Origin: Escherichia coli
GTDB taxonomy: Bacteria > Pseudomonadota > Gammaproteobacteria > Enterobacterales > Enterobacteriaceae
Assembly (NCBI RefSeq): GCF_003334815.1
Contig: NZ_QOWO01000063.1
Strand: one strand, 5' to 3'
DNA: 9,120 nt
The notes beneath the pieces were generated by a model, which worked only from the letters and a program-made list of their open reading frames with translations, had not been told where the DNA came from and made no database searches. The position numbers and the translations under genes are program-made. Positions 1 through 9,120 of this stretch are shown piece by piece. Numbering within the stretch: the first letter of the stretch is position 1; each line of letters opens with the position of its first letter.

Positions 1-94
1 AAAAAATCGGCTCAAACATGAAGAAATGAAATGACTGAGTCAGCCGAGAAGAATTTCCCCGCTTATTCGCACCTTCCTTAAACCCGATACGCTT

Positions 95-1390
95 TTGATC
101 AATAAAGTCCATGCAGAAAGCCTAAGGCTTGATTGGCTGGCTAAGACCACGCCTCCAGTCGCTAGTGTTCATCCTACCGTGCCTCTTGCCGCTCCTGCCC
201 CTACTATCGATAACGAGTATGTTAATCGAAAGTATTACACTAAGAATCTGTCGTGGTTATGCTCTGAATATCTAAAGCATCGGCGCAAGGGCAAGGTATC
301 GGAGTCGGCTATAAGTGATATCCGTAACTATTTCAGCTTTATGATCGAAGCGATGGGTGACATTCAGTTGGAAGATTTTGATCGCGATTTCCTCCGGGCT
401 TATGAGAGCAAACTGCGCACGATCCCAGCAAACCGTAATTTAGTCAAAGCTAAATATGGAGTGAAAACGCTGGATCAGTTAATCGCCAAAGCGGCAGAAT
501 GCGGCGATAAATTGATGACTGAGGAATCCGTTAGGAAGTATATCAACGGCATTTATGGTGCAATGAAGTGGGCTGTTGCTGACGGTAAGCTACTGAAATC
601 GCCATGCGAAAACTTTTTTCCATCCGATGATAAAGATGAGCGAGATCAGGATCACACTGACATATTTGAACCGCATGAAATTAAAGCGATTTTTTCGTTA
701 CCGTGGTTTGAGGCTGGAACTGTTGAACGCAATGCGCAAGGGCGATTCCATCAATATTGCCCGTTTAACTATTGGGCAATATTGATGGGCTTGATGACGG
801 GGGCGCGAGTTAATGAAATCGCTCAGTTACTGCTGAGTGATGTTCTGGCAGACGACGGCGTCTATTATTTGAACCTTGAAAGCGATAATGAAAGCGGAAA
901 GAAACTCAAAAATGCTAATGCTCGCCGCAAGATTCCGCTCCATTCAAAGCTGATTAGTCTCGGTTTCATCGACTACGTGAACGCCTTAAAAGATGCAGGG
1001 TATACCCGTCTCTTCCCGGAGCTTAAACCACATAAAACAAAAGGCTATGGTAGGCCAGTTTCCGCATGGTTCAATGAATCGTTGCTTGCGGGGCGGTTGA
1101 AACTCGAGAGGAACAGAAGCAAATCTTTCCATTCTTTTCGCCACTCAGTTTCGACTTTGCTCAAGGAGAAGGGCGTTAGCTCAGAATTACGAGCGCAGCT
1201 ACTTGGGCATGTGCGCGGCGAAACTGAAACGGAAGTGCGATATAGCAAAGACCTCAAACCAATTCATATGATTGAAGTCGTGGAGAAAATTGATTTTTCG
1301 TTACCTGATATAGCGGAATTCAACATTCCTGACGGGCTGGATGCTGTCAGAGATGCGTTGCGAAGAAAGCGTGGCAAACAAACAGGTTGA
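95..1390 (+). CDS. Tyrosine recombinase / phage-type integrase
   Basis: Long ORF whose C-terminal half carries the tyrosine-recombinase catalytic signature: LMTGARVNEIAQ (box I Arg), then HSFRHSVSTLL ... LLGHVRGETETEVRYSKD (H-x-x-R, His, catalytic Tyr). The first in-frame start is TTG at 95 (in-frame stop at 32..34) with no clear SD; GTG at 179 and ATG at 341 are alternatives, so the 5' end is uncertain. Confidence 0.8.
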   Translation: MINKVHAESLRLDWLAKTTPPVASVHPTVPLAAPAPTIDNEYVNRKYYTKNLSWLCSEYLKHRRKGKVSESAISDIRNYFSFMIEAMGDIQLEDFDRDFLRAYESKLRTIPANRNLVKAKYGVKTLDQLIAKAAECGDKLMTEESVRKYINGIYGAMKWAVADGKLLKSPCENFFPSDDKDERDQDHTDIFEPHEIKAIFSLPWFEAGTVERNAQGRFHQYCPFNYWAILMGLMTGARVNEIAQLLLSDVLADDGVYYLNLESDNESGKKLKNANARRKIPLHSKLISLGFIDYVNALKDAGYTRLFPELKPHKTKGYGRPVSAWFNESLLAGRLKLERNRSKSFHSFRHSVSTLLKEKGVSSELRAQLLGHVRGETETEVRYSKDLKPIHMIEVVEKIDFSLPDIAEFNIPDGLDAVRDALRRKRGKQTG

Positions 1391-1423
1391 ATCAGTTACT
1401 ATTCAGTTGAGTGATGCTTGAAT

Positions 1424-1455
1424 GCGCTGGGACGCTTCCTGGCGCGTTTTTTATT
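1424..1455 (+). terminator. Rho-independent terminator downstream of the integrase
   Basis: GCGCTGGGA / TCCTGGCGC stem (9 bp including two G-U pairs, 4-nt loop CGCT) followed immediately by TTTTTTATT at 1447..1455; lies between the convergent integrase and the 1523..1855 gene. Confidence 0.45.
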
Positions 1456-1522
1456 AAGGGTGGTGGATTTCATAGTGCTGAATTTGGAGACGCTCAAAAC
1501 ACGTTTGGTGAAACTTGATGAC

Positions 1523-1855
1523 CTACGATTGCACCCGCAGCCCTTCTACGCTTTCTGATGGTAGATTTATCACTGTTTTAATGCTGGCCTCTATGTTGCC
1601 AATGATGTCTTCGCGCGGGCCGCTGCGCCAGTCATCGCTTGCGTAAAAAGCGTCGAGAACCGTAGTCATGCTTTTAGGGCTGACAAAGGCGCGAATCAGG
1701 TAATAGCAGTCCGGGTCATGCAGAGAGTTACCAAACGAAACAACATCGATCCCGTGGCGTTGGTGTAGGGGAACACTGATTTCCTGCATAATGGCGTGAA
1801 AAGCGGCACCGCTGCCTTTGCGTAAGGTGTATTGCAGTATCTCGACGGTTCTCAA
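1523..1855 (-). CDS. Small dimeric alpha/beta-barrel protein, NIPSNAP/ABM-like (hypothetical)
   Basis: 110-codon ORF; the N-terminus MRTVEILQYTLRKGSGAAFH resembles the beta1 motif of NIPSNAP/stress-responsive alpha-beta barrel proteins. TTG start at 1855 with a GGAG 8 nt upstream on the minus strand; an out-of-frame ATG (1860..1858) is followed by a stop after two codons. Confidence 0.5.
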   Translation of the reverse strand: MRTVEILQYTLRKGSGAAFHAIMQEISVPLHQRHGIDVVSFGNSLHDPDCYYLIRAFVSPKSMTTVLDAFYASDDWRSGPREDIIGNIEASIKTVINLPSESVEGLRVQS

Positions 1856-2828
1856 AGCATTATCTCCGCGTCGCCTCTGGACGGCTCCCTTGTTGATAGC
1901 AATAAAGTAAACCGGACTGGGCCATGAAGCTACTGCTAATCAGACAGTCATCCGTAAGCAAAAGCTGCGATATGCGGTTCAAACGCGCTGTAAGGCTCTC
2001 TGGCGAGTGTTTTAAAGAAGGTAGTCGAAATCATGGTGCAGAATTCGCGGCGCTCTCATAGAGTGACTGGCGAAGCCAGTTGAAACAAGCGTAGCGGAGT
2101 TCGAGCAATCAATGAGAAATCTGGGCGAGCTTTAAGCTTTACCGCGCTTCTTAACTTTTGAGTCTGTTTGGCTCTATAAGGATAAGCCTGCCGCCGTGGA
2201 AATTTTCGGACGCTATGCCTGAGAGGGGCGCTTCCAAACCTAGGGCATCCACTTTTTCGCTCCCAACTTATCTGGCTGCATTTACACCGCGAACACGTTG
2301 AACGTTAGCAGCTTCTGGTTCGTATTTGGTTGTTACGCAGGAGAGGTAAAAACGGCAGGTTTACTTTTGACGGCAACGCCATAAGACACCAAACAGCAGA
2401 GAAGTGTAATTGTTAAAAATGTTAAAACATAACTTGTTCTTTAAGATGTAAACCCTTCCTCGGGGGGGAAGCCGGACATATCAACCATAAGGCCATCTGA
2501 GAAGATAGCCTGTAGGTTGCTCGGTTCCCCTTGCCAGATGAAGATCAAGTCTTCCTCGTGGTGTGACGACCTTTCTTGAAAGATGCATTATGCGCAAAAG
2601 AAGCTACTCAAGAATCCGCCGATAGCTACTTTCACCCTCTGCTTGGCTGCATCAAACGCTTGCGCGCCCTACCTACCACAATCAACGTTACGCAGAGTTC
2701 CCATCCTGACGTCTTCCGCTAAACAGCGGTGATCTCCACCTACCCGGACCGGTTTACCGCATGAGGTAGGTGTCAGGAGAGAAGCTAGCACACCATCATT
2801 TTAAAGAAAAGTCATATATATCATATGG

Positions 2829-2851
2829 CTGCGTTCATATTCTGAACGCAG
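2829..2851. repeat. Perfect 9-bp inverted repeat (CTGCGTTCA-N5-TGAACGCAG) just downstream of the DUF1643-like gene
   Basis: Read directly: 2829..2837 is the reverse complement of 2843..2851. No adjacent T-tract on either strand, so it is more likely a protein-binding site or RNA hairpin than a classical terminator. Confidence 0.5.
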
Positions 2852-2860
2852 TTATCGATG

Positions 2861-3327
2861 TTAACCTAAAGGTATGAGAACACTGTCGTTTTTCATATAC
2901 AAAGGGTGCTTCGGCTCACCTGTAGCGTTTAAGACGAAGCACATTGTGCTCTCTGGCAATAGCTGTCGGACGGTCGTTGAGCGTTTGAGGTGTCTTCCTT
3001 CATTTCCCCATGCGGCGACAACCAGTCCGGCACCGCTAACAAGACGTATCAAGTGGCTATCGTTATCTTTGCCAATGGGATCAGACGCTTTCATCATTTC
3101 ATGTCGCTGGGTGTGAACGAATGCGAACAGGTTGGCCATGTATACGCCACCGTAGCCCCAGCTTTTGGCAAACGATATGCAGCGGCTCAAGGTGCGATCA
3201 TCCTTCTCAGCATCGGCGTATGAAGGGTTTAGCCCTATGAAAAGGGCATATGGTTTTGATTCGTCCCAGACTCGTGATAACGAGTAGCGATATTGACCGC
3301 ACGGTGAAAAATCGCGTCTTTAATCAT
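2861..3327 (-). pseudogene. DUF1643-family gene interrupted by a frameshift in a homopolymer run (or N-terminally truncated product from TTG 3190)
   Basis: The 2861..3190 ORF translation contains SRCISFAKSWGYGGVYMANLFAF ... VAAWG ... GEPKHPLY, matching the DUF1643 pattern as I remember it. The same frame continues upstream (KPYALFIGLNPSYADAEKDDRTL, also family-typical) to a stop at 3320..3322 with no start codon. An ATG with an AAGGA SD 8 nt upstream sits at 3327..3325 in another frame and terminates after 30 codons. The two frames meet at the A5 run at 3307..3311; adding one base there gives a continuous ORF of about 155 codons. Confidence 0.5.
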
Positions 3328-3398
3328 TTCGGTTGTCCTTATGAAGTGATGGTTTCAGCCTAACATGTCTTTATCCGTTTTAAGCGCCAACAAACGAC

Positions 3399-3499
3399 CG
3401 TTTTCTGGCACCTCCCAATCGCACGCTTTCACACTGTTGGAAAAATAGCCTTGGCTTTTCTGGCAGGCCATCCTAATGTTGGCCTCGTTTTCTGGCAGG
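3399..3499 (+). promoter_or_regulatory. Three direct repeats of TTTTCTGGCA upstream of the serine recombinase (candidate res-like or operator region)
   Basis: Core TTTTCTGGCA at 3401..3410, 3456..3465 and 3488..3497 (flanks cgTTTTCTGGCAcc, gcTTTTCTGGCAgg, cgTTTTCTGGCAgg). A small inverted repeat AGGCCA-N9-TGGCCT lies between copies 2 and 3. The last copy ends about 22 bp before the recombinase ATG. Confidence 0.4.
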
Positions 3500-3519
3500 G
3501 GTCAGATGGGGAGATAACA

Positions 3520-4080
3520 ATGGCAACTTTTGGCTACGGACGTGTTTCGACATCGCAGCAGGATACTGAGAACCAACGGCTGGAGCTTGGGCAGGCTGGG
3601 TGGCAAATTGATTACTGGTTTGCCGATGTTGTTAGCGGGAAGGTTCCGGCAATGCAACGTAAAGCATTTTCTGAAATGCTCAATAAAATCCGCGATGGTG
3701 AAACGTTGGTGGTAGCGAAGCTTGATCGTCTGGGGCGTGATGCGATTGACGTCTTGCAAACGGTAAGGGCGCTGGCTGACCGTAATATCAAGGTTCTTGT
3801 CCACCAGCTTGGTAACACAGATCTCACTTCTGCCGCTGGGAAGTTGCTATTATCTATGCTCGCCGCGGTTGCGGAGATGGAGCGTGATCTGCTGATTGAG
3901 CGCACTCAGGCGGGACTATCACGAGCAAAAGCCGAAGGTAAGAAATTGGGCAGACCTCCTAAAATCGCGTCAGAAGCCCGTAGAGAGATTTTAGAGAAAA
4001 AGAATAGCGGTTTGAGTATCAGTGCGTTAGCGCGTCAATATGGCGTTTCAAGAGCGACTGTAGCAGCTATTACCGATTGA
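3520..4080 (+). CDS. Serine recombinase (resolvase/invertase family)
   Basis: Translation from ATG 3520 (GGGGAGA SD about 6 nt upstream) begins MATFGYGRVSTSQQD with the catalytic Ser motif, then LVVAKLDRLGRD and a C-terminal HTH (GLSISALARQYGVSRATV) after a GRPPK linker. This is the classic small serine recombinase architecture. The ORF-track start at 3451 is an upstream in-frame extension without an RBS. Confidence 0.9.
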   Translation: MATFGYGRVSTSQQDTENQRLELGQAGWQIDYWFADVVSGKVPAMQRKAFSEMLNKIRDGETLVVAKLDRLGRDAIDVLQTVRALADRNIKVLVHQLGNTDLTSAAGKLLLSMLAAVAEMERDLLIERTQAGLSRAKAEGKKLGRPPKIASEARREILEKKNSGLSISALARQYGVSRATVAAITD

Positions 4081-4093
4081 ATATGGAGAGTTT

Positions 4094-4939
4094 ATGGCTT
4101 ACACAGCAACTGTTATCCCTGTAATGATTGCTTCTCCTGGTGATGTCGCTGAAGAGAGACAAGTCATTCGTGAAATGATCCATGAGTGGAATGATATAAA
4201 TTCAGCTCGTTCAAAAGTAATGTTGACACCAATTGGATGGGAAACTCATACATCACCCGAATTAGGAGTTAGGCCTCAGGAGTTGATTAATCAAAGATTA
4301 TTAGTAGATTGTGATTTATTAATCGGTGTGTTTTGGACTCGTCTAGGCTCACCGACTGGGAACGAGGCCAGCGGAACAGTCGAAGAAATCCACCGTCATT
4401 TGAATGCGGGAAAACCGGCAATGATTTACTTTTCCTCAAAGCCTGTTGCCCCTGAAAGCCTTGATAGAGAACAATATGAGTCTCTTAAATTGTTCAAAAC
4501 TGAGTGCATGCAAAAGGGATTGATAGAGTCTTTTAATGACTTATCTGATTTCAAAGAAAAAGTCCGTAGGCAACTTTCGATAATTATTTCTAGTAGCCCT
4601 TATTTGTCTTCTCTTATATCTACCATTAACAATTCTCCTGATGCGAATACAAGTCAATCTTTGCCAGAAAGTAATTTGTCCGCCGATGCACTCAGTTTGC
4701 TGAAATTAGCATGTGTCGATGATAGCGGAACAATTTATGTGATAAGGCATTTAGGTGGCACGGATATTCAAGCGGGAAATCAATCCTTTGGTGGAAGTTC
4801 GGCTAGAGAGGTAGCCCGTTGGGAGGGCGCACTTAACGAACTGTTATCCTTTGATTTTGTGATTGAAAGAGGGGCAAAAGGACAAATGTATTATGTTACT
4901 CATAAAGGCTGGACATTTCTTGAATCTTTAAATGAATAA
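4094..4939 (+). CDS. Hypothetical two-domain cargo protein; N-terminal domain resembles a DUF4062/TIR-like Rossmann-type domain, C-terminal domain unknown
   Basis: ATG 4094 with GGAGAG SD; starts 13 bp after the recombinase stop. The N-terminal segment VMIASPGDVAEERQVI ... LVDCDLLIGVFWTRLGSPTG ... GTVEEIHRHLNAGKPAMIYF fits the strand-helix pattern and conserved acidic/ER and CD motifs I associate with DUF4062-type domains (from memory, unverified). The gene is visibly more AT-rich than the recombinase. Confidence 0.55.
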   Translation: MAYTATVIPVMIASPGDVAEERQVIREMIHEWNDINSARSKVMLTPIGWETHTSPELGVRPQELINQRLLVDCDLLIGVFWTRLGSPTGNEASGTVEEIHRHLNAGKPAMIYFSSKPVAPESLDREQYESLKLFKTECMQKGLIESFNDLSDFKEKVRRQLSIIISSSPYLSSLISTINNSPDANTSQSLPESNLSADALSLLKLACVDDSGTIYVIRHLGGTDIQAGNQSFGGSSAREVARWEGALNELLSFDFVIERGAKGQMYYVTHKGWTFLESLNE

Positions 4940-4999
4940 TTAAATGCGAGGTCATTACATAAGTTTATTTTTGATGTTAGGGTGAATTCCCTCACATTT

Positions 5000-5494
5000 T
5001 TATTCGAAAGAGGCCGCAATGACTTCTCCTGTTTTTGCGTTGAAAACACAAAAGTATTGAAGCGGAGCTAGCATCCCCAAGCTGTTAACTACCTTAGCTT
5101 GTTGCCCAAATGCCTGAATAATCTTCGCGTTCTCATCGTGCCAGAGATAAGTATTAAATACAGGCGCTTCGCTTTCTTGCCACACATGGCGAAACTTCGC
5201 TTTCTCATCCATTACCTTTTTGCACTCCCTGACCGGGTTATGGTGCGTTTTCGCATAGCATTCCGGGTTGTCATCTGCACATACGATATCTTTTCGTGCT
5301 GTCTGATGCTCAGCACCTACAGCAGAAAAGGCGCATACGCCCAGCACCAATGAGAGAGTGCCCAGAGCACCCCATACAGTTGCGCGTAGCGTGCTGATGT
5401 GCTGCTTTGATACAGCATGGGCAACTACACTATAACTGGCCCAGCTAATCGCGGCTCCCGCTGCAATCGGTAATAAAAAGTCTGCTCCCGTCAT
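5000..5494 (-). CDS. Small membrane protein, two predicted TM helices plus a Cys-containing C-terminal domain (hypothetical)
   Basis: ATG at 5494 with GAGGG SD 5 nt upstream on the minus strand. Hydrophobic segments ADFLLPIAAGAAISWASYSVVAHAV and ATVWGALGTLSLVLGVCAFSAVGA are followed by a soluble domain with several Cys. The ORF-track start at 5551 is an extension without an RBS. Confidence 0.6.
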   Translation of the reverse strand: MTGADFLLPIAAGAAISWASYSVVAHAVSKQHISTLRATVWGALGTLSLVLGVCAFSAVGAEHQTARKDIVCADDNPECYAKTHHNPVRECKKVMDEKAKFRHVWQESEAPVFNTYLWHDENAKIIQAFGQQAKVVNSLGMLAPLQYFCVFNAKTGEVIAASFE

Positions 5495-5554
5495 GATTCC
5501 CTCACTTTCCAAACCACATCGCGCCTGATAGCGAACGCTGGTGACGCCCAACCG

Positions 5555-5568
5555 ATGATGATCATCAT
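5555..5568. promoter_or_regulatory. Perfect 14-bp palindrome ATGATGATCATCAT in the divergent intergenic region (candidate operator)
   Basis: Read directly; self-complementary across the 5561/5562 centre. It sits about 60 bp upstream of the membrane-protein start and about 165 bp upstream of the XRE regulator start. Confidence 0.4.
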
Positions 5569-5734
5569 ACTTGTTGGGTTTTAAATGTCACCATTGGTGT
5601 TTGTTTTGAATCAAAAAGGATTGTCATGATACAGCCGATGAATGCTAGTGACTAAGCTCGCTGAAGTGAGATTGGATTCAAAATATCTCATATGGAGCGT
5701 GGCCTTACAGTGGTCAAAATTGCACATTCAGTGC

Positions 5735-6199
5735 ATGAAAAAATCCCTGAGAATACAGTTTGGCGAGCGGGTAAAAGAACTGCGCATTGCCACCGGATTG
5801 AGCCAAGAGGCCTTTGCCGATCGGTGCGGGTTTGCACGTAGTTATATGAGCAGAATTGAACGTGGTGGCTCTAATGCGTCTCTGGATGCGATTGAGGTGC
5901 TGGCTAACGCTCTGAGCGTTGAGCCGTGGCAGTTGTTAGCGCCTGGCCCATCTGAAGATAACGACTCGGAACTGTTGGTTCCATACGCAGCCGATGGTTC
6001 CTGTTTTCACCCCGGTTTGGCGAGCACCCGTGATGGTTCGTTTGGCGTAGGTGATAAAGCGGCTCAGAAGCGTTTTGGCACGTTTGCTGAAGCTCTTGAG
6101 TATCTTCGTAGCATGGAGACAGCAAAATGGCGTAGGCCTAATCCTAGCGGCAACTGGGGTATCGTATCAGCGGTTCGGTGGGACAAACTGAGAAAGTAG
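5735..6199 (+). CDS. XRE-family (Cro/cI-type) helix-turn-helix transcriptional regulator with an uncharacterised C-terminal domain
   Basis: MKKSLRIQFGERVKELRIATGLSQEAFADRCGFARSYMSRIERGGSNASLDAIEVLANALSVEPWQLL is a textbook XRE HTH. The start was chosen at ATG 5735 because the HTH then sits at the N-terminus; no good SD at either 5735 or the ORF-track start 5642, so the start is uncertain. Confidence 0.75.
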   Translation: MKKSLRIQFGERVKELRIATGLSQEAFADRCGFARSYMSRIERGGSNASLDAIEVLANALSVEPWQLLAPGPSEDNDSELLVPYAADGSCFHPGLASTRDGSFGVGDKAAQKRFGTFAEALEYLRSMETAKWRRPNPSGNWGIVSAVRWDKLRK

Positions 6200-6678
6200 C
6201 TCAAGTGTAAGTTTATGAATTTTTATGCTGTATGGATGAACAGTATTCATTAGATGCTGATAGTCTTATGTTTCATCAGCCCTTTGTTTCTATAAGAGTG
6301 AATAAAACAGCAAAATGCGGGTGCGTTACGGTGGCGTTTCGCTTTGGCTCTTAATGGCTTAATTCATATAAATAACATTGAGTTAAATAGTTATTCTGAA
6401 CAAGGTCTGCCGGGGTCTAACTGGTTTCAAAATCCGAACGCAGTGGCGTTTATTCAACGTCCACATAGCTGACAAATGTTCTTTCCTCCCGACTCGGCAG
6501 ACCTCCAGAAACATTAAAAGGCAGGTATGGCACGTTGATGTTTTATGCCGCCACGAACACTCGGTTTGATTCCGTCCAGCGGATCAAACTTAATATGTAG
6601 CCCCTAGAACAAAAAGGTCCTACGATTGCTCTCTTAACAGCTAACAGGAACGTGATTACAGCAGGTTATAGAGACTTA

Positions 6679-6703
6679 GGTTCGAGTCCGGCCTTCGGTA
6701 CCA
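6679..6703 (+). repeat. tRNA-Leu 3'-end-like sequence (T-loop, acceptor 3' strand and CCA): candidate att direct repeat / island junction
   Basis: GGTTCGAGTCCGGCCTTCGGTACCA matches the 3' end of enterobacterial tRNA-Leu(CAA) (leuX type, recalled as ...CCGGTTCGAGTCCGGCCTTCGGCACCA) with one mismatch. The upstream sequence cannot form the rest of a cloverleaf (the T-stem 5' strand is TTAGG, not GCCGG), so this is a 3' fragment, not a gene. Confidence 0.55.
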
Positions 6704-7236
6704 AGTTACTAAATTCCTTACAATACAGTTAGTTAGACGATTAAATCTGTCTCTTTTGCCTGTAAGAAATGCTCTGTTATGTCCCTTGAAAAAGCCGCTG
6801 TGGTTGATAGTGGTAATTGGGATGTTAACTCATAGCGGCGTGTCGTTCCAAGCGTCAAACACGTACTGACTCAACTTGAAAGCTATGACGTAGCCACCGT
6901 CTCTAAACAATCCCAAAACTTTTAGTGCAGCGCATTTTAGCCCGATGCCCCCATTCTGTCGCCGTCGCGAGACGCCGCAGGGGATAAACAGGTTTATGGT
7001 GGTCACGGTACTTGCAGACCATATGCAAGCTCTGCCAGCGGTTCGGCCTCGCTCCCCTTGGGTACATGGTCATCCTGATAAGCCTCACTAACTGACATAA
7101 CCCTGATGAAGTCGCAAGAGGCTCCGCTTGTTGTCTTACCACCAACGGGGCTTTATGGATTCTATTGCTTAATATATGATTGTATCAAACTTAGACTGCA
7201 TAATTTAAACGAACATAACAATCAGGCAGGGGAAGA

Positions 7237-8061
7237 ATGATAAAGCCATTTTCTGTGAGGTATGGTCATGTTGACGTTAGAGAGCATGTCCAGCTGAATG
7301 ATCTTAATTCTGATACACGCATGGCATTGTGGAATTGCTTATATCTTTTCCTTTGGACTAACAATCGTCAAACTGCTACAGCAACAAAATGTGCGCAGTC
7401 TGTGTGGATATATTATCTAAATCAACCTGCGGATAATATTCCTCGTTATGAAAGTGGATACAAAAGTGATAAGACGTTGCTGACTGCTATCCGAGATTAT
7501 ATATATGGGGAAGCATGGTATTTGGTATATGATTTAATTGAGTTCATCATTGAGAGAACTAATTCATATATTAATCTATCGAAGCATCTCAATTCCATCT
7601 TTAAAAAGCATGGCGTTGGTTATACCATAATAAATGGTTGTATTACTCCTATTTCAAATGATAACGAAATTGAAAGTGTTCAGAACGCAGTTGATAATGG
7701 CACTGATTCATCGCGTAGCCATTTCGAAAGGGCGTTACAACTAATGACGGATAGAGAGCAGCCAGACTACAGAAACTCGATTAAAGAGTCTATCTCTGCA
7801 ATTGAATCTTTATGCAGGAAAATCACGGGCAATGATAAAGGAACCTTGGGGGCTTGTCTTAAAGCTATAGAGGAAAAAGGATATATACACTCTGCAATGA
7901 AAGGCGCTTTTAGTCAGCTCTATGGTTATACAAGTGATCAGGGTGGAATACGTCATGCGCTAACAGAAGAAGATGTAAATCCTACCTTAGCTGAAGCTAA
8001 ATTTATGTTAGTCACTTGCAGTGCGTTCAGTAATTATCTGTTGTCAAAAATAAGTGATTAA
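7237..8061 (+). CDS. AbiJ-like abortive-infection protein (AbiJ N-terminal-type domain plus C-terminal HEPN-like domain), putative
   Basis: ATG 7237 with GGGGAAG SD. The N-terminus FSVRYGHVDVREHVQLNDL ... RMALWNCLY fits the FS-x-R-x-G ... LWN pattern I associate with AbiJ N-terminal domains. The C-terminal part has PDYRNSIKESISAIESL ... GYTSDQGGIRHALTEED ... AKFMLVTCSAF, typical of the linked HEPN-type domain. Family assignment is from memory, not a search. The gene is strongly AT-rich. Confidence 0.5.
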   Translation: MIKPFSVRYGHVDVREHVQLNDLNSDTRMALWNCLYLFLWTNNRQTATATKCAQSVWIYYLNQPADNIPRYESGYKSDKTLLTAIRDYIYGEAWYLVYDLIEFIIERTNSYINLSKHLNSIFKKHGVGYTIINGCITPISNDNEIESVQNAVDNGTDSSRSHFERALQLMTDREQPDYRNSIKESISAIESLCRKITGNDKGTLGACLKAIEEKGYIHSAMKGAFSQLYGYTSDQGGIRHALTEEDVNPTLAEAKFMLVTCSAFSNYLLSKISD

Positions 8062-8079
8062 TTACAGGTTTATAGTTAC

Positions 8080-8114
8080 GAGTGGGTTAGTTACCCACTC
8101 CCTTTAAAATTATT
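8080..8114. terminator. Candidate bidirectional terminator between convergent genes
   Basis: Perfect 8-bp stem GAGTGGGT / ACCCACTC (8080..8087 and 8093..8100, 5-nt loop) followed by CCTTTAAAATTATT; lies between the stop of 7237..8061 and the stop of the 8110..8682 minus-strand gene. Confidence 0.4.
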
Positions 8115-8682
8115 CACCAGACTCTAATCTTTTTTCTCTTTTCTCATCTCTCCTTTTTATTGCCAAATCGTGTTGCTCTTGCAGATACGTGCGTTCTTCG
8201 TTTCTATCGCTTGAAGTATATACGTCTGCTTTTACTTTTTTAGCTCCTTGTGCAATAGGTTTCCAATCCTCTCTTATACCTTTAATTTGTTCTGCAATTT
8301 GCGTCAATGGGCTTCTCGCTCCTAGATAACTTATTCCTTCAAATGTCGCCATGTCATACACATATTCATTTGTTTCTCTATCGTTTGATTTAGGTTTGCT
8401 TGCCCAGCTTATATTAATATTATAAATTTGATCTTTGATTTGTTCATACTTACAGAGATTGCTGGTAAGTGATTGCCCATTTTTTAACACGCTTACCTTA
8501 CTAAACGGAATCTCACTTTTTTCTCTATGCTCCGCATTTACTAGTGGAGGATCAAACACAACCTCAACATTATAGGCAGGTGCGTTCCCTGTATTAGCAA
8601 TGTTAATATCAAAGTAAAAAGCGGCCCAAGGGTTTGGCTCAAGTGTTACAACTATATGGGGTTGAGCTGATGCGTCAACCAT
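8110..8682 (-). CDS. Hypothetical protein (AT-rich cargo gene, no recognisable family)
   Basis: Start assigned to ATG 8682..8680 (MVDASAQPHIVVTLEP...). The ORF-track extension to 8736 would run into the IS terminal repeat and is therefore unlikely to be native. The C-terminal tail is Lys/Arg/Glu-rich. Confidence 0.5.
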   Translation of the reverse strand: MVDASAQPHIVVTLEPNPWAAFYFDINIANTGNAPAYNVEVVFDPPLVNAEHREKSEIPFSKVSVLKNGQSLTSNLCKYEQIKDQIYNINISWASKPKSNDRETNEYVYDMATFEGISYLGARSPLTQIAEQIKGIREDWKPIAQGAKKVKADVYTSSDRNEERTYLQEQHDLAIKRRDEKREKRLESGE

Positions 8683-8710
8683 TCTTTTTGTCTCGTCTGC
8701 TCTGAAGTGG

Positions 8711-9045
8711 TGAAGTGGTTTACTGAATTTGGCCACCTGAACAGAGGTGATATGCTCACCTCAGAACAACACAGGTGCTCCAATGAAAAAAAGAAATTTT
8801 AGCGCAGAGTTTAAACGCGAATCCGCTCAACTGGTTGTTGACCAGACATACACGGTGGCAGATGCCGCCAAAGCTATGGATGTTGGCCTTTCCACAATGA
8901 CAAGATGGGTCAAACAACTGCGTGATGAGCGTCAGGGCAAAACACCAAAAGCCTCTCCGATAACACCAGAACAAATCGAAATACGTAAGCTGAGGAAAAA
9001 GCTACAACGCATTGAAATGGAGAATGAAATATTAAAAAAGGCTAC
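8711..9045 (+). mobile_element. IS3-family insertion sequence (IS911-like), left end with terminal inverted repeat and orfA; truncated/interrupted at 9045
   Basis: The terminus TGAAGTGGTTTACTGAATTTGGCCACC begins with the TGAAGTGG...GGCCACC pattern I recall for IS911 ends, and the downstream sequence encodes an IS911-type OrfA. An extra TGAAGTGG copy sits immediately upstream at 8703..8710. Confidence 0.75.
8783..9045 (+). CDS. IS3-family (IS911-like) transposase OrfA (HTH/leucine-zipper N-terminal protein), 3' end disrupted by insertion
   Basis: Translation [88 protein letters not shown] is near-identical to IS911 OrfA as I remember it. After codon T (9044..9046) the reading frame continues into unrelated sequence. 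Confidence 0.8.
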
Positions 9046-9120
9046 TGTAGATTCAATCTGTCAATGCAACACCCCTTTCAATTATCTCTTTCGGTGTTTT
9101 GAACTTCAGTGTCTTTCTCG
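9046..9120 (+). mobile_element. Terminus of an IS30-family element inserted into the IS911-like orfA (continues beyond window)
   Basis: The sequence from 9046, TGTAGATTCAATCTGTCAATGCAACA, resembles the IS30 terminal inverted repeat (recalled as TGTAGATTCAATTGGTCAACGCAACA). The junction is exactly where IS911 homology stops. Confidence 0.5.

Follow-up and report, generated by a model that had tools for sequence, protein, structure and literature searches.

The window, by which we mean the whole 9,120-nucleotide stretch of DNA analysed, carries at its right-hand edge the left part of an IS911-type element of the IS3 family, which runs directly into the right end of IS30 and is preceded by a 5'-truncated gene for a DUF8453 protein. 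The coordinates of these features are given in Table 1. The DNA belongs to a leuX-tRNA genomic island that is present in several hundred complete Escherichia coli genomes with 99.9% identity to window positions 78 to 9120. For positions 8600 to 9120, the identity is 100% in 463 of the complete genomes, among them those of Nissle 1917 and the type strain. In Nissle, the order along the island is leuX, the integrase gene, several island genes, an AbiJ-NTD4 gene, the hypothetical (DUF8453) gene, the IS911 fragment, IS30, the remaining part of IS911 and the fec operon. This locus is the KpLE2 position of K-12.

Other features of the window were recorded alongside. Bases 1 to 77 are identical (77/77) to one end of K-12 IS5A. 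This end adjoins TTAA inside the tyrosine integrase gene of the island (636 aa in Nissle), of which the open reading frame at 95-1390 is the C-terminal part, and the IS5/integrase junction was absent from complete RefSeq E. coli genomes. On the plus strand, positions 3451 to 4939 encode a small serine recombinase (invertase/resolvase-like; Mpi family, E 6e-28) and, immediately after it, a 281-aa protein. The first ~165 residues of this protein are similar to the N-terminus of PDC-S60, a PADLOC model of 906 positions (E 5.8e-27). The stretch of about 1 kb from an HTH control-protein-like gene to the AbiJ-NTD4 gene (6200-7236) contains no RefSeq-annotated gene and no open reading frame of 100 aa or more, and an Rfam scan of the whole window gave no matches. 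The AbiJ-NTD4 protein (7237-8061, plus strand) strongly matches PDC-S32, a candidate defence family of PADLOC (E 5.6e-104). Its gene is convergent with the DUF8453 remnant, a pairing that was conserved in 0 of 19 orthologous loci. The DUF8453 remnant was also found at 100% protein identity in JAIJJM010000048.1, a 9.8-kb contig of a metagenome-assembled genome (MAG) named 'Collinsella sp.', where the flank, doubled tip, IS911 fragment and IS30 end are all as in the window over the stretch inspected. Almost certainly, this contig comes from E. coli and was wrongly binned with the Collinsella MAG.

Table 1. Features at the right-hand edge of the window
Feature	Position	Strand	Basis or remark
5'-truncated DUF8453 gene remnant	8110..8701	-	RefSeq 8110-8682 (Nissle); native homology to 8700/8701
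Extra, out-of-register copy of TGAAGTGG (scar)	8703..8710	+	Sequence; orthologue comparison
Left 335 bp of IS911-type IS3-family element (K-12 IS911B equivalent)	8711..9045	+	Alignments; K-12 annotation
IS911-type IRL, 36 bp, in register with reference copies	8711..8746	+	Alignments
orfA codons 1-87 plus 2 nt	8783..9045	+	Translation; NF033516 match
A AAA AAG (A6G) -1 frameshift heptamer, intact	9034..9040	+	Sequence; alignment
AC, left copy of the 2-bp target duplication of IS30	9044..9045	+	Right copy outside window
30-bp IS911 site hit by IS30			TATTAAAAAAGGCTACCGCGCTCTTGATGT
IS30 right-end 75 bp, running past window edge	9046..9120	-	75/75 identity to K-12 IS30D
IS30 IRR, 26 bp	9046..9071	-	23/26 against IRL of same element; identical to K-12 IS30D
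IS30 transposase C-terminal codons (last 21)	9056-9118; stop 9053-9055	-	Translation

An IS911-type element interrupted by IS30

The name IS911 follows the K-12 GenBank annotation, the published IRR oligonucleotide and RefSeq labels; the TTTAC-tipped relatives of the element are labelled 'ISEc52 family' in RefSeq. In addition to its likeness to K-12 IS911B, the fragment matches another IS911::IS30 composite at 330 of 335 positions, and it is about 91% identical to IS911A and to the intact element of NZ_CM142695.1. It has the terminal repeat of IS911 and the IS3 family (about 36 bp, 5'-TG...CA-3', with the tip TGAAGTGG), and its IRL departs from that of K-12 IS911B at positions 9-11 only, which read TTT, the IS911A/ISEc52-type tip, instead of CAC. 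The locus also agrees with the layout expected of the IS3 family, which is an orfA (HTH and leucine zipper), then an A6G -1 frameshift site and an orfB with a DDE domain. The orfA codons match positions 1-81 of the NCBIfam IS3 transposase model NF033516 (E 7.6e-14), and the A6G motif is the IS3-family slippery site for the shift into orfB (PMC6211511). The orfA frame runs on for 28 codons into antisense IS30, creating a 116-codon chimeric reading frame that ends outside the window. The orfB of the full locus is on the far side of IS30, past the window edge; it has two 1-nt deletions, and its annotation is that of a frameshifted pseudogene.

The initial annotation had described an IS911-like element interrupted in orfA by an IS30-family end, and the alignment to reference ends that it had called for upheld this description. 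With the K-12 references, IS911-type homology ends after GGCTAC at 9045 (327/335 to IS911B up to this base), IS30 homology begins at 9046 (75/75 to IS30D), and IS30 is entered through its IRR, on the minus strand. The 26-bp imperfect terminal repeat of IS30, beginning TGTAGATTCAAT, occupies window positions 9046 to 9071. The initial annotation had also remarked that similarity to canonical IS30 is lost after about 26 bp and had proposed either the opposite end or a different family member. The remark was accurate, as the left end of IS30 matches the window at 23 of its first 26 bases and similarity is gone beyond. Of the two explanations the opposite end held, the repeat being the IRR of IS30 itself. 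A different IS30-family member, suggested by this departure from the familiar left end, is contradicted by the perfect match to the IS30D right end and by the Nissle element, which is 1221 bp long and identical to K-12 IS30A at 1217 of 1221 positions; we therefore regard it as practically excluded.

The window holds 75 bp of IS30, and the size and coding content of this element (1221 bp, one transposase open reading frame of about 383 aa) were found at the Nissle locus, where the gene is 1152 bp long and is labelled 'IS30-like element IS30 family transposase' in RefSeq. The Nissle locus reads GGCT(AC), IS30 of 1221 bp, (AC)CGCGCTC, and the same duplication of AC is present in CP4-6 of K-12; in the IS911-type element without an insertion, AC occurs once, at positions 334-335. 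IS30 entered by its normal copy-out/paste-in transposition, duplicating this AC, and now separates position 335 of the IS911-type element from position 336. The insertion point lies 5 nt 3' of the A6G heptamer. The orientation of IS30 is opposite to that of the IS911-type element, which places its IRR beside orfA.

This insertion splits orfA and the slippery site from orfB, and with these parts separated no OrfAB transposase should be produced. The right end of the IS911 element, outside the window, has kept its terminal CA but reads CCACAACA in place of CCACTTCA. Since orfB is frameshifted, the right tip is mutated and the element is split by IS30, the IS911 copy is dead, a fossil. IS30, which is full length and has an intact annotated transposase gene, has probably retained its mobility.

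The left boundary and the truncated DUF8453 gene

The DUF8453 reading frame stays open right into the IS, and the remnant lacks 43 N-terminal codons, among them those of a predicted TM helix. All 19 intact orthologues recovered by genome and metagenome scans read ...WRVTRLL/ADETKRMVD..., where the window reads ...HHFR/ADETKRMVD. At the nucleotide level, 19 of 19 read GCTATTA where the window reads CCACTTCAGA, and C8702, which lies between the native gene and the outer tip, differs from every one of them. Because orthologue homology breaks at 8700/8701, neither C8702 nor the first TGAAGTGG belongs to the gene. Seventeen of the intact orthologues came from a degenerate scan and have only 74-81% DNA identity, so that they fix the homology break and do not give the exact native sequence of the E. 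coli type; an intact E. coli-type DUF8453 allele was not found among the orthologues available.

The missing 5' part of the DUF8453 gene was absent from the other side of the IS, and no duplication matching either left flank was present at the IS911 right end in Nissle or K-12. The right boundary is GTTGACCACAACA/GAC in both. The 3-bp target duplication expected of IS911 was thus absent, the left flank being ...GCTC or ...TGG and the right flank GAC..., which fits a rearranged boundary and is no argument against the identity of the element as IS911. The loss of 43 codons, the absence of a 3-bp duplication and the fact that K-12 shares the right flank but not the left one collectively indicate that the left boundary is a rearrangement junction and not the primary insertion site. 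The structure thus accounts for the 5'-truncated state of the DUF8453 gene.

Complete E. coli genomes and a metagenome scan yielded neither an empty site nor a copy of this locus with a single tip. Among 478 genomes with the left flank, 440 cover at least 80% of the query composed of the flank and the tandem. The partial matches inspected were secondary IS events, with an IS629-type element replacing 8671 onward in one genome and the others interrupted within the gene. The metagenome scan, which looked for the exact flank continuing into sequence other than the IS, gave no matches.

We conclude that the locus is very probably a nested fossil, in which an IS911-type element within the leuX island was hit by IS30, the left boundary was rearranged and the extra tip is a scar. 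The nested arrangement is already known, widespread and annotated, including in K-12. The IRR-type IS911/IS30 junction was detected at a coverage of at least 80% in at least 1217 of 5426 complete E. coli genomes, plasmids included, or roughly a fifth. For annotation, the nested IS911::IS30 marks the edge of the variable part of the leuX island, beside the fec operon. The sole unannotated detail is the 8-bp scar at the IS911 tip. The importance of the locus is low overall, and the doubled tip is a minor curiosity concerning the reshuffling of IS ends.

The doubled tip and its possible histories

The eight bases that the initial annotation had reported in tandem at the IS911-like left end were found exactly as described, with TGAAGTGG at 8703-8710 and at 8711-8718 (a perfect tandem of 17 bases with period 8). 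No other perfect 8+8 tandem occurs in the window; mononucleotide shuffling gave 0.12 such tandems per window anywhere, and for a given IS tip the chance of being repeated by its eight outer neighbours is 4^-8, or 1.5e-5. The inner copy has the same register as the tip of every reference IRL, five bases ahead of TGAATTTGGCC. According to the account of Normand 2001 given in PMC7780238, IS911 transposase sets the cleavage position from a subterminal binding site. With cleavage measured from this site, the inner copy is the functional-register tip and the outer copy is flank.

A total of 465 E. coli genomes carry the tandem, at 466 places that are all chromosomal and represent one single locus. 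The TTTAC-type IRL occurs in more than 2400 records and in many contexts, with a single tip in all copies inspected. A single tip, with CAC at IRL positions 9-11, is seen in the other composites in which IS911 is interrupted by minus-strand IS30 (K-12, plasmid p120899_146 and strain 98224). The window matches such composites at 330 of 335 positions, and IRL positions 9-11 account for three of the five mismatches. As judged from these alignments, the window element is a CACAC-type body with a TTTAC-type tip and an extra tip.

The initial annotation had suggested that the repeated tip might be a remnant of a second end or an abutted-end junction, and these two suggestions fared differently. IS911 does form IRR-3 bp-IRL junctions (PMC2909936), as expected of a circle or tandem dimer. 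However, the tips in a true junction are inverted (CCACTTCA-NNN-TGAAGTGG), whereas the copies in the window are direct and have no spacer, and the sequence to their left is a truncated protein gene without IRR sequence. An abutted-end junction was ruled out by the orientation of the two TGAAGTGG copies, and we assign it next to no probability. The remnant of a second end has stayed the best guess; the outer tip is most likely the tip of a second IS911-type end.

The most economical history of the tip, and the one that we prefer, consists of a nested insertion followed by recombination. In the first step, a TTTAC-tipped IS911/ISEc52-type element would have entered the IRL of a resident CACAC-tipped composite, after position 8. 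In the second, homologous recombination within the identical IRL positions 12-97 would have deleted one IS length. What remained would be an 8-bp tip on the outside, followed by an inner IRL whose positions 9-11 read TTT and by a body of the IS911B type. With only 8 bp of homology outside positions 9-11, a crossover importing a foreign left end would be more plausible than gene conversion, and IS911 has been documented to target IS911 ends (PMC9333248). The nested intermediate CCACTTCA-TGG-CACACTGAATTTGG, consisting of the IRR tip, TGG and the IRL from position 9, was absent from 5426 complete E. coli genomes. In addition, nested insertion would require an allele-specific substitution to account for C8702, which is unlike the 19 orthologues. 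Published IR-targeted insertions of IS911 and IS30 have produced inverted IRR-IRL junctions beside an end and were not direct insertions at a point 8 bp within it, which counts against a direct nested insertion at this position. We hold the two-step history tentatively, with a likelihood somewhat short of even.

A narrower claim is that the outer tip and the hybrid IRL are together the footprint of a direct, same-orientation insertion of an IS911-family element into the outermost 8 bp of a second IS911 end, followed by recombination between the two copies. We consider this possible and rather doubtful. If true, the locus would be an in-genome record of IS911 self-targeting, unlike the inverted IRR-IRL laboratory products.

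Alternatively, the outer TGAAGTGG may be a templated or slippage duplication that arose when the DUF8453 junction was formed or during later replication, the TTT being simply carried by the resident element. Short templated duplications are common at non-homologous deletion junctions, and the boundary is such a junction, with one or two unexplained filler bases, (T)C, at 8701-8702. The perfect periodicity of the tandem and the failure to find the nested intermediate among the complete genomes also favour a duplication of this kind. However, a separate event would be needed to place a TTTAC tip on a CACAC-type body, and the duplicated unit is flanked by only 1 bp of microhomology. Slippage is thus a plausible minority explanation, to which we give roughly a one-in-three weight at most.

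Two further explanations would place the origin of the eight bases outside IS911. The outer copy could be pre-existing flank that resembled an IS tip, either as a target mimic, given the attraction of IS911 to IS911-end-like DNA (PMC9333248), or by pure chance, given that IS911-type ends at 7134 places in the genome collection make even so rare a coincidence possible. Against both forms stands the orthologue comparison, in which these bases are not native to the gene in any of the 19 intact copies; against chance, at most about 0.1 cases would be expected even if every copy were independent. We consider a resembling flank improbable. The tandem could also be the 8-bp target duplication of another element (for example of the IS26, IS66 or IS256 families) that was later removed exactly. 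The repeat has the right length, and at least one strain (H28) carries IS26 in this island, but no such element lies at this position in any of the 465 genomes, one copy of the duplication is normally lost when a bacterial IS is lost, and the TTT tip is left unexplained. This origin is even less probable than a resembling flank.

Comparison with K-12 and with an intact element

The parallel with insN-insI-insO of K-12, which the initial annotation had drawn, proved sound. K-12 has two such structures, and the window corresponds to the one at leuX/KpLE2, with the same junction and orientation. This structure is IS911B::IS30D (insO/insI3; NC_000913.3 4507125-4509801), annotated as a 334-bp part of IS911B, a 1221-bp IS30D on the minus strand and, beside yjhV-fecE, the rest of IS911B. 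Its junction, GGCTAC/TGTAGATTCAATCTG, is identical to that of the window, and it shares with the window locus the IS30 orientation, the right IS911 end with its GAC flank, and the yjhV-fecE right flank. In contrast to the window, the K-12 copy has a single tip, CAC at IRL positions 9-11, another left flank (the yjhE pseudogene), and an IS600 fragment and deletion after IS30. The window differs from it in the extra 8-bp tip, the TTT at positions 9-11 and the truncated DUF8453 gene on the left. One A of the heptamer has been lost in K-12 IS911B (A5G), whereas the window copy has retained A6G. By this comparison of the two sequences, the window allele is a less decayed version of the same fossil.

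The second K-12 structure, IS911A::IS30A of CP4-6 (insN/insI1), is a described arrangement (PMC9333248). It has IS30 at the identical IS911 dinucleotide, with the same AC duplication, and a TTTAC-type IRL tip. However, IS30 is reversed relative to the window, so that its IRL adjoins orfA, and the tip is single. This IRL junction is the canonical one with which the initial annotation had compared the window. IS911A is about 91% identical to the orfA region of the window, and the orfA sequences of the two K-12 elements, IS911A and IS911B, are about 9% apart. The CP4-6-type (IRL) junction was found in about 1315 complete E. coli genomes. Given the use of the same AC in both orientations and in IS911 variants about 9% apart, two independent hits on an IS30 hot spot would be the simplest reading. 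These two independent insertions suggest a natural IS30 hot spot inside IS911, at the AC of positions 334-335. IS30 is known for hot-spot behaviour, and its target in IS911 is only weakly palindromic (6 of 14 positions).

The intact IS911/ISEc52-type element of NZ_CM142695.1 provides a comparison with an undamaged relative. Its first 36 bp, the IRL, are identical to window positions 8711 to 8746. The element is 1250 bp long and has TG...CA ends, and its IRR is that of the published IS911 IRR oligonucleotide. Unlike the window copy, it is uninterrupted, has single tips and is flanked by a 3-bp target duplication (TGT).
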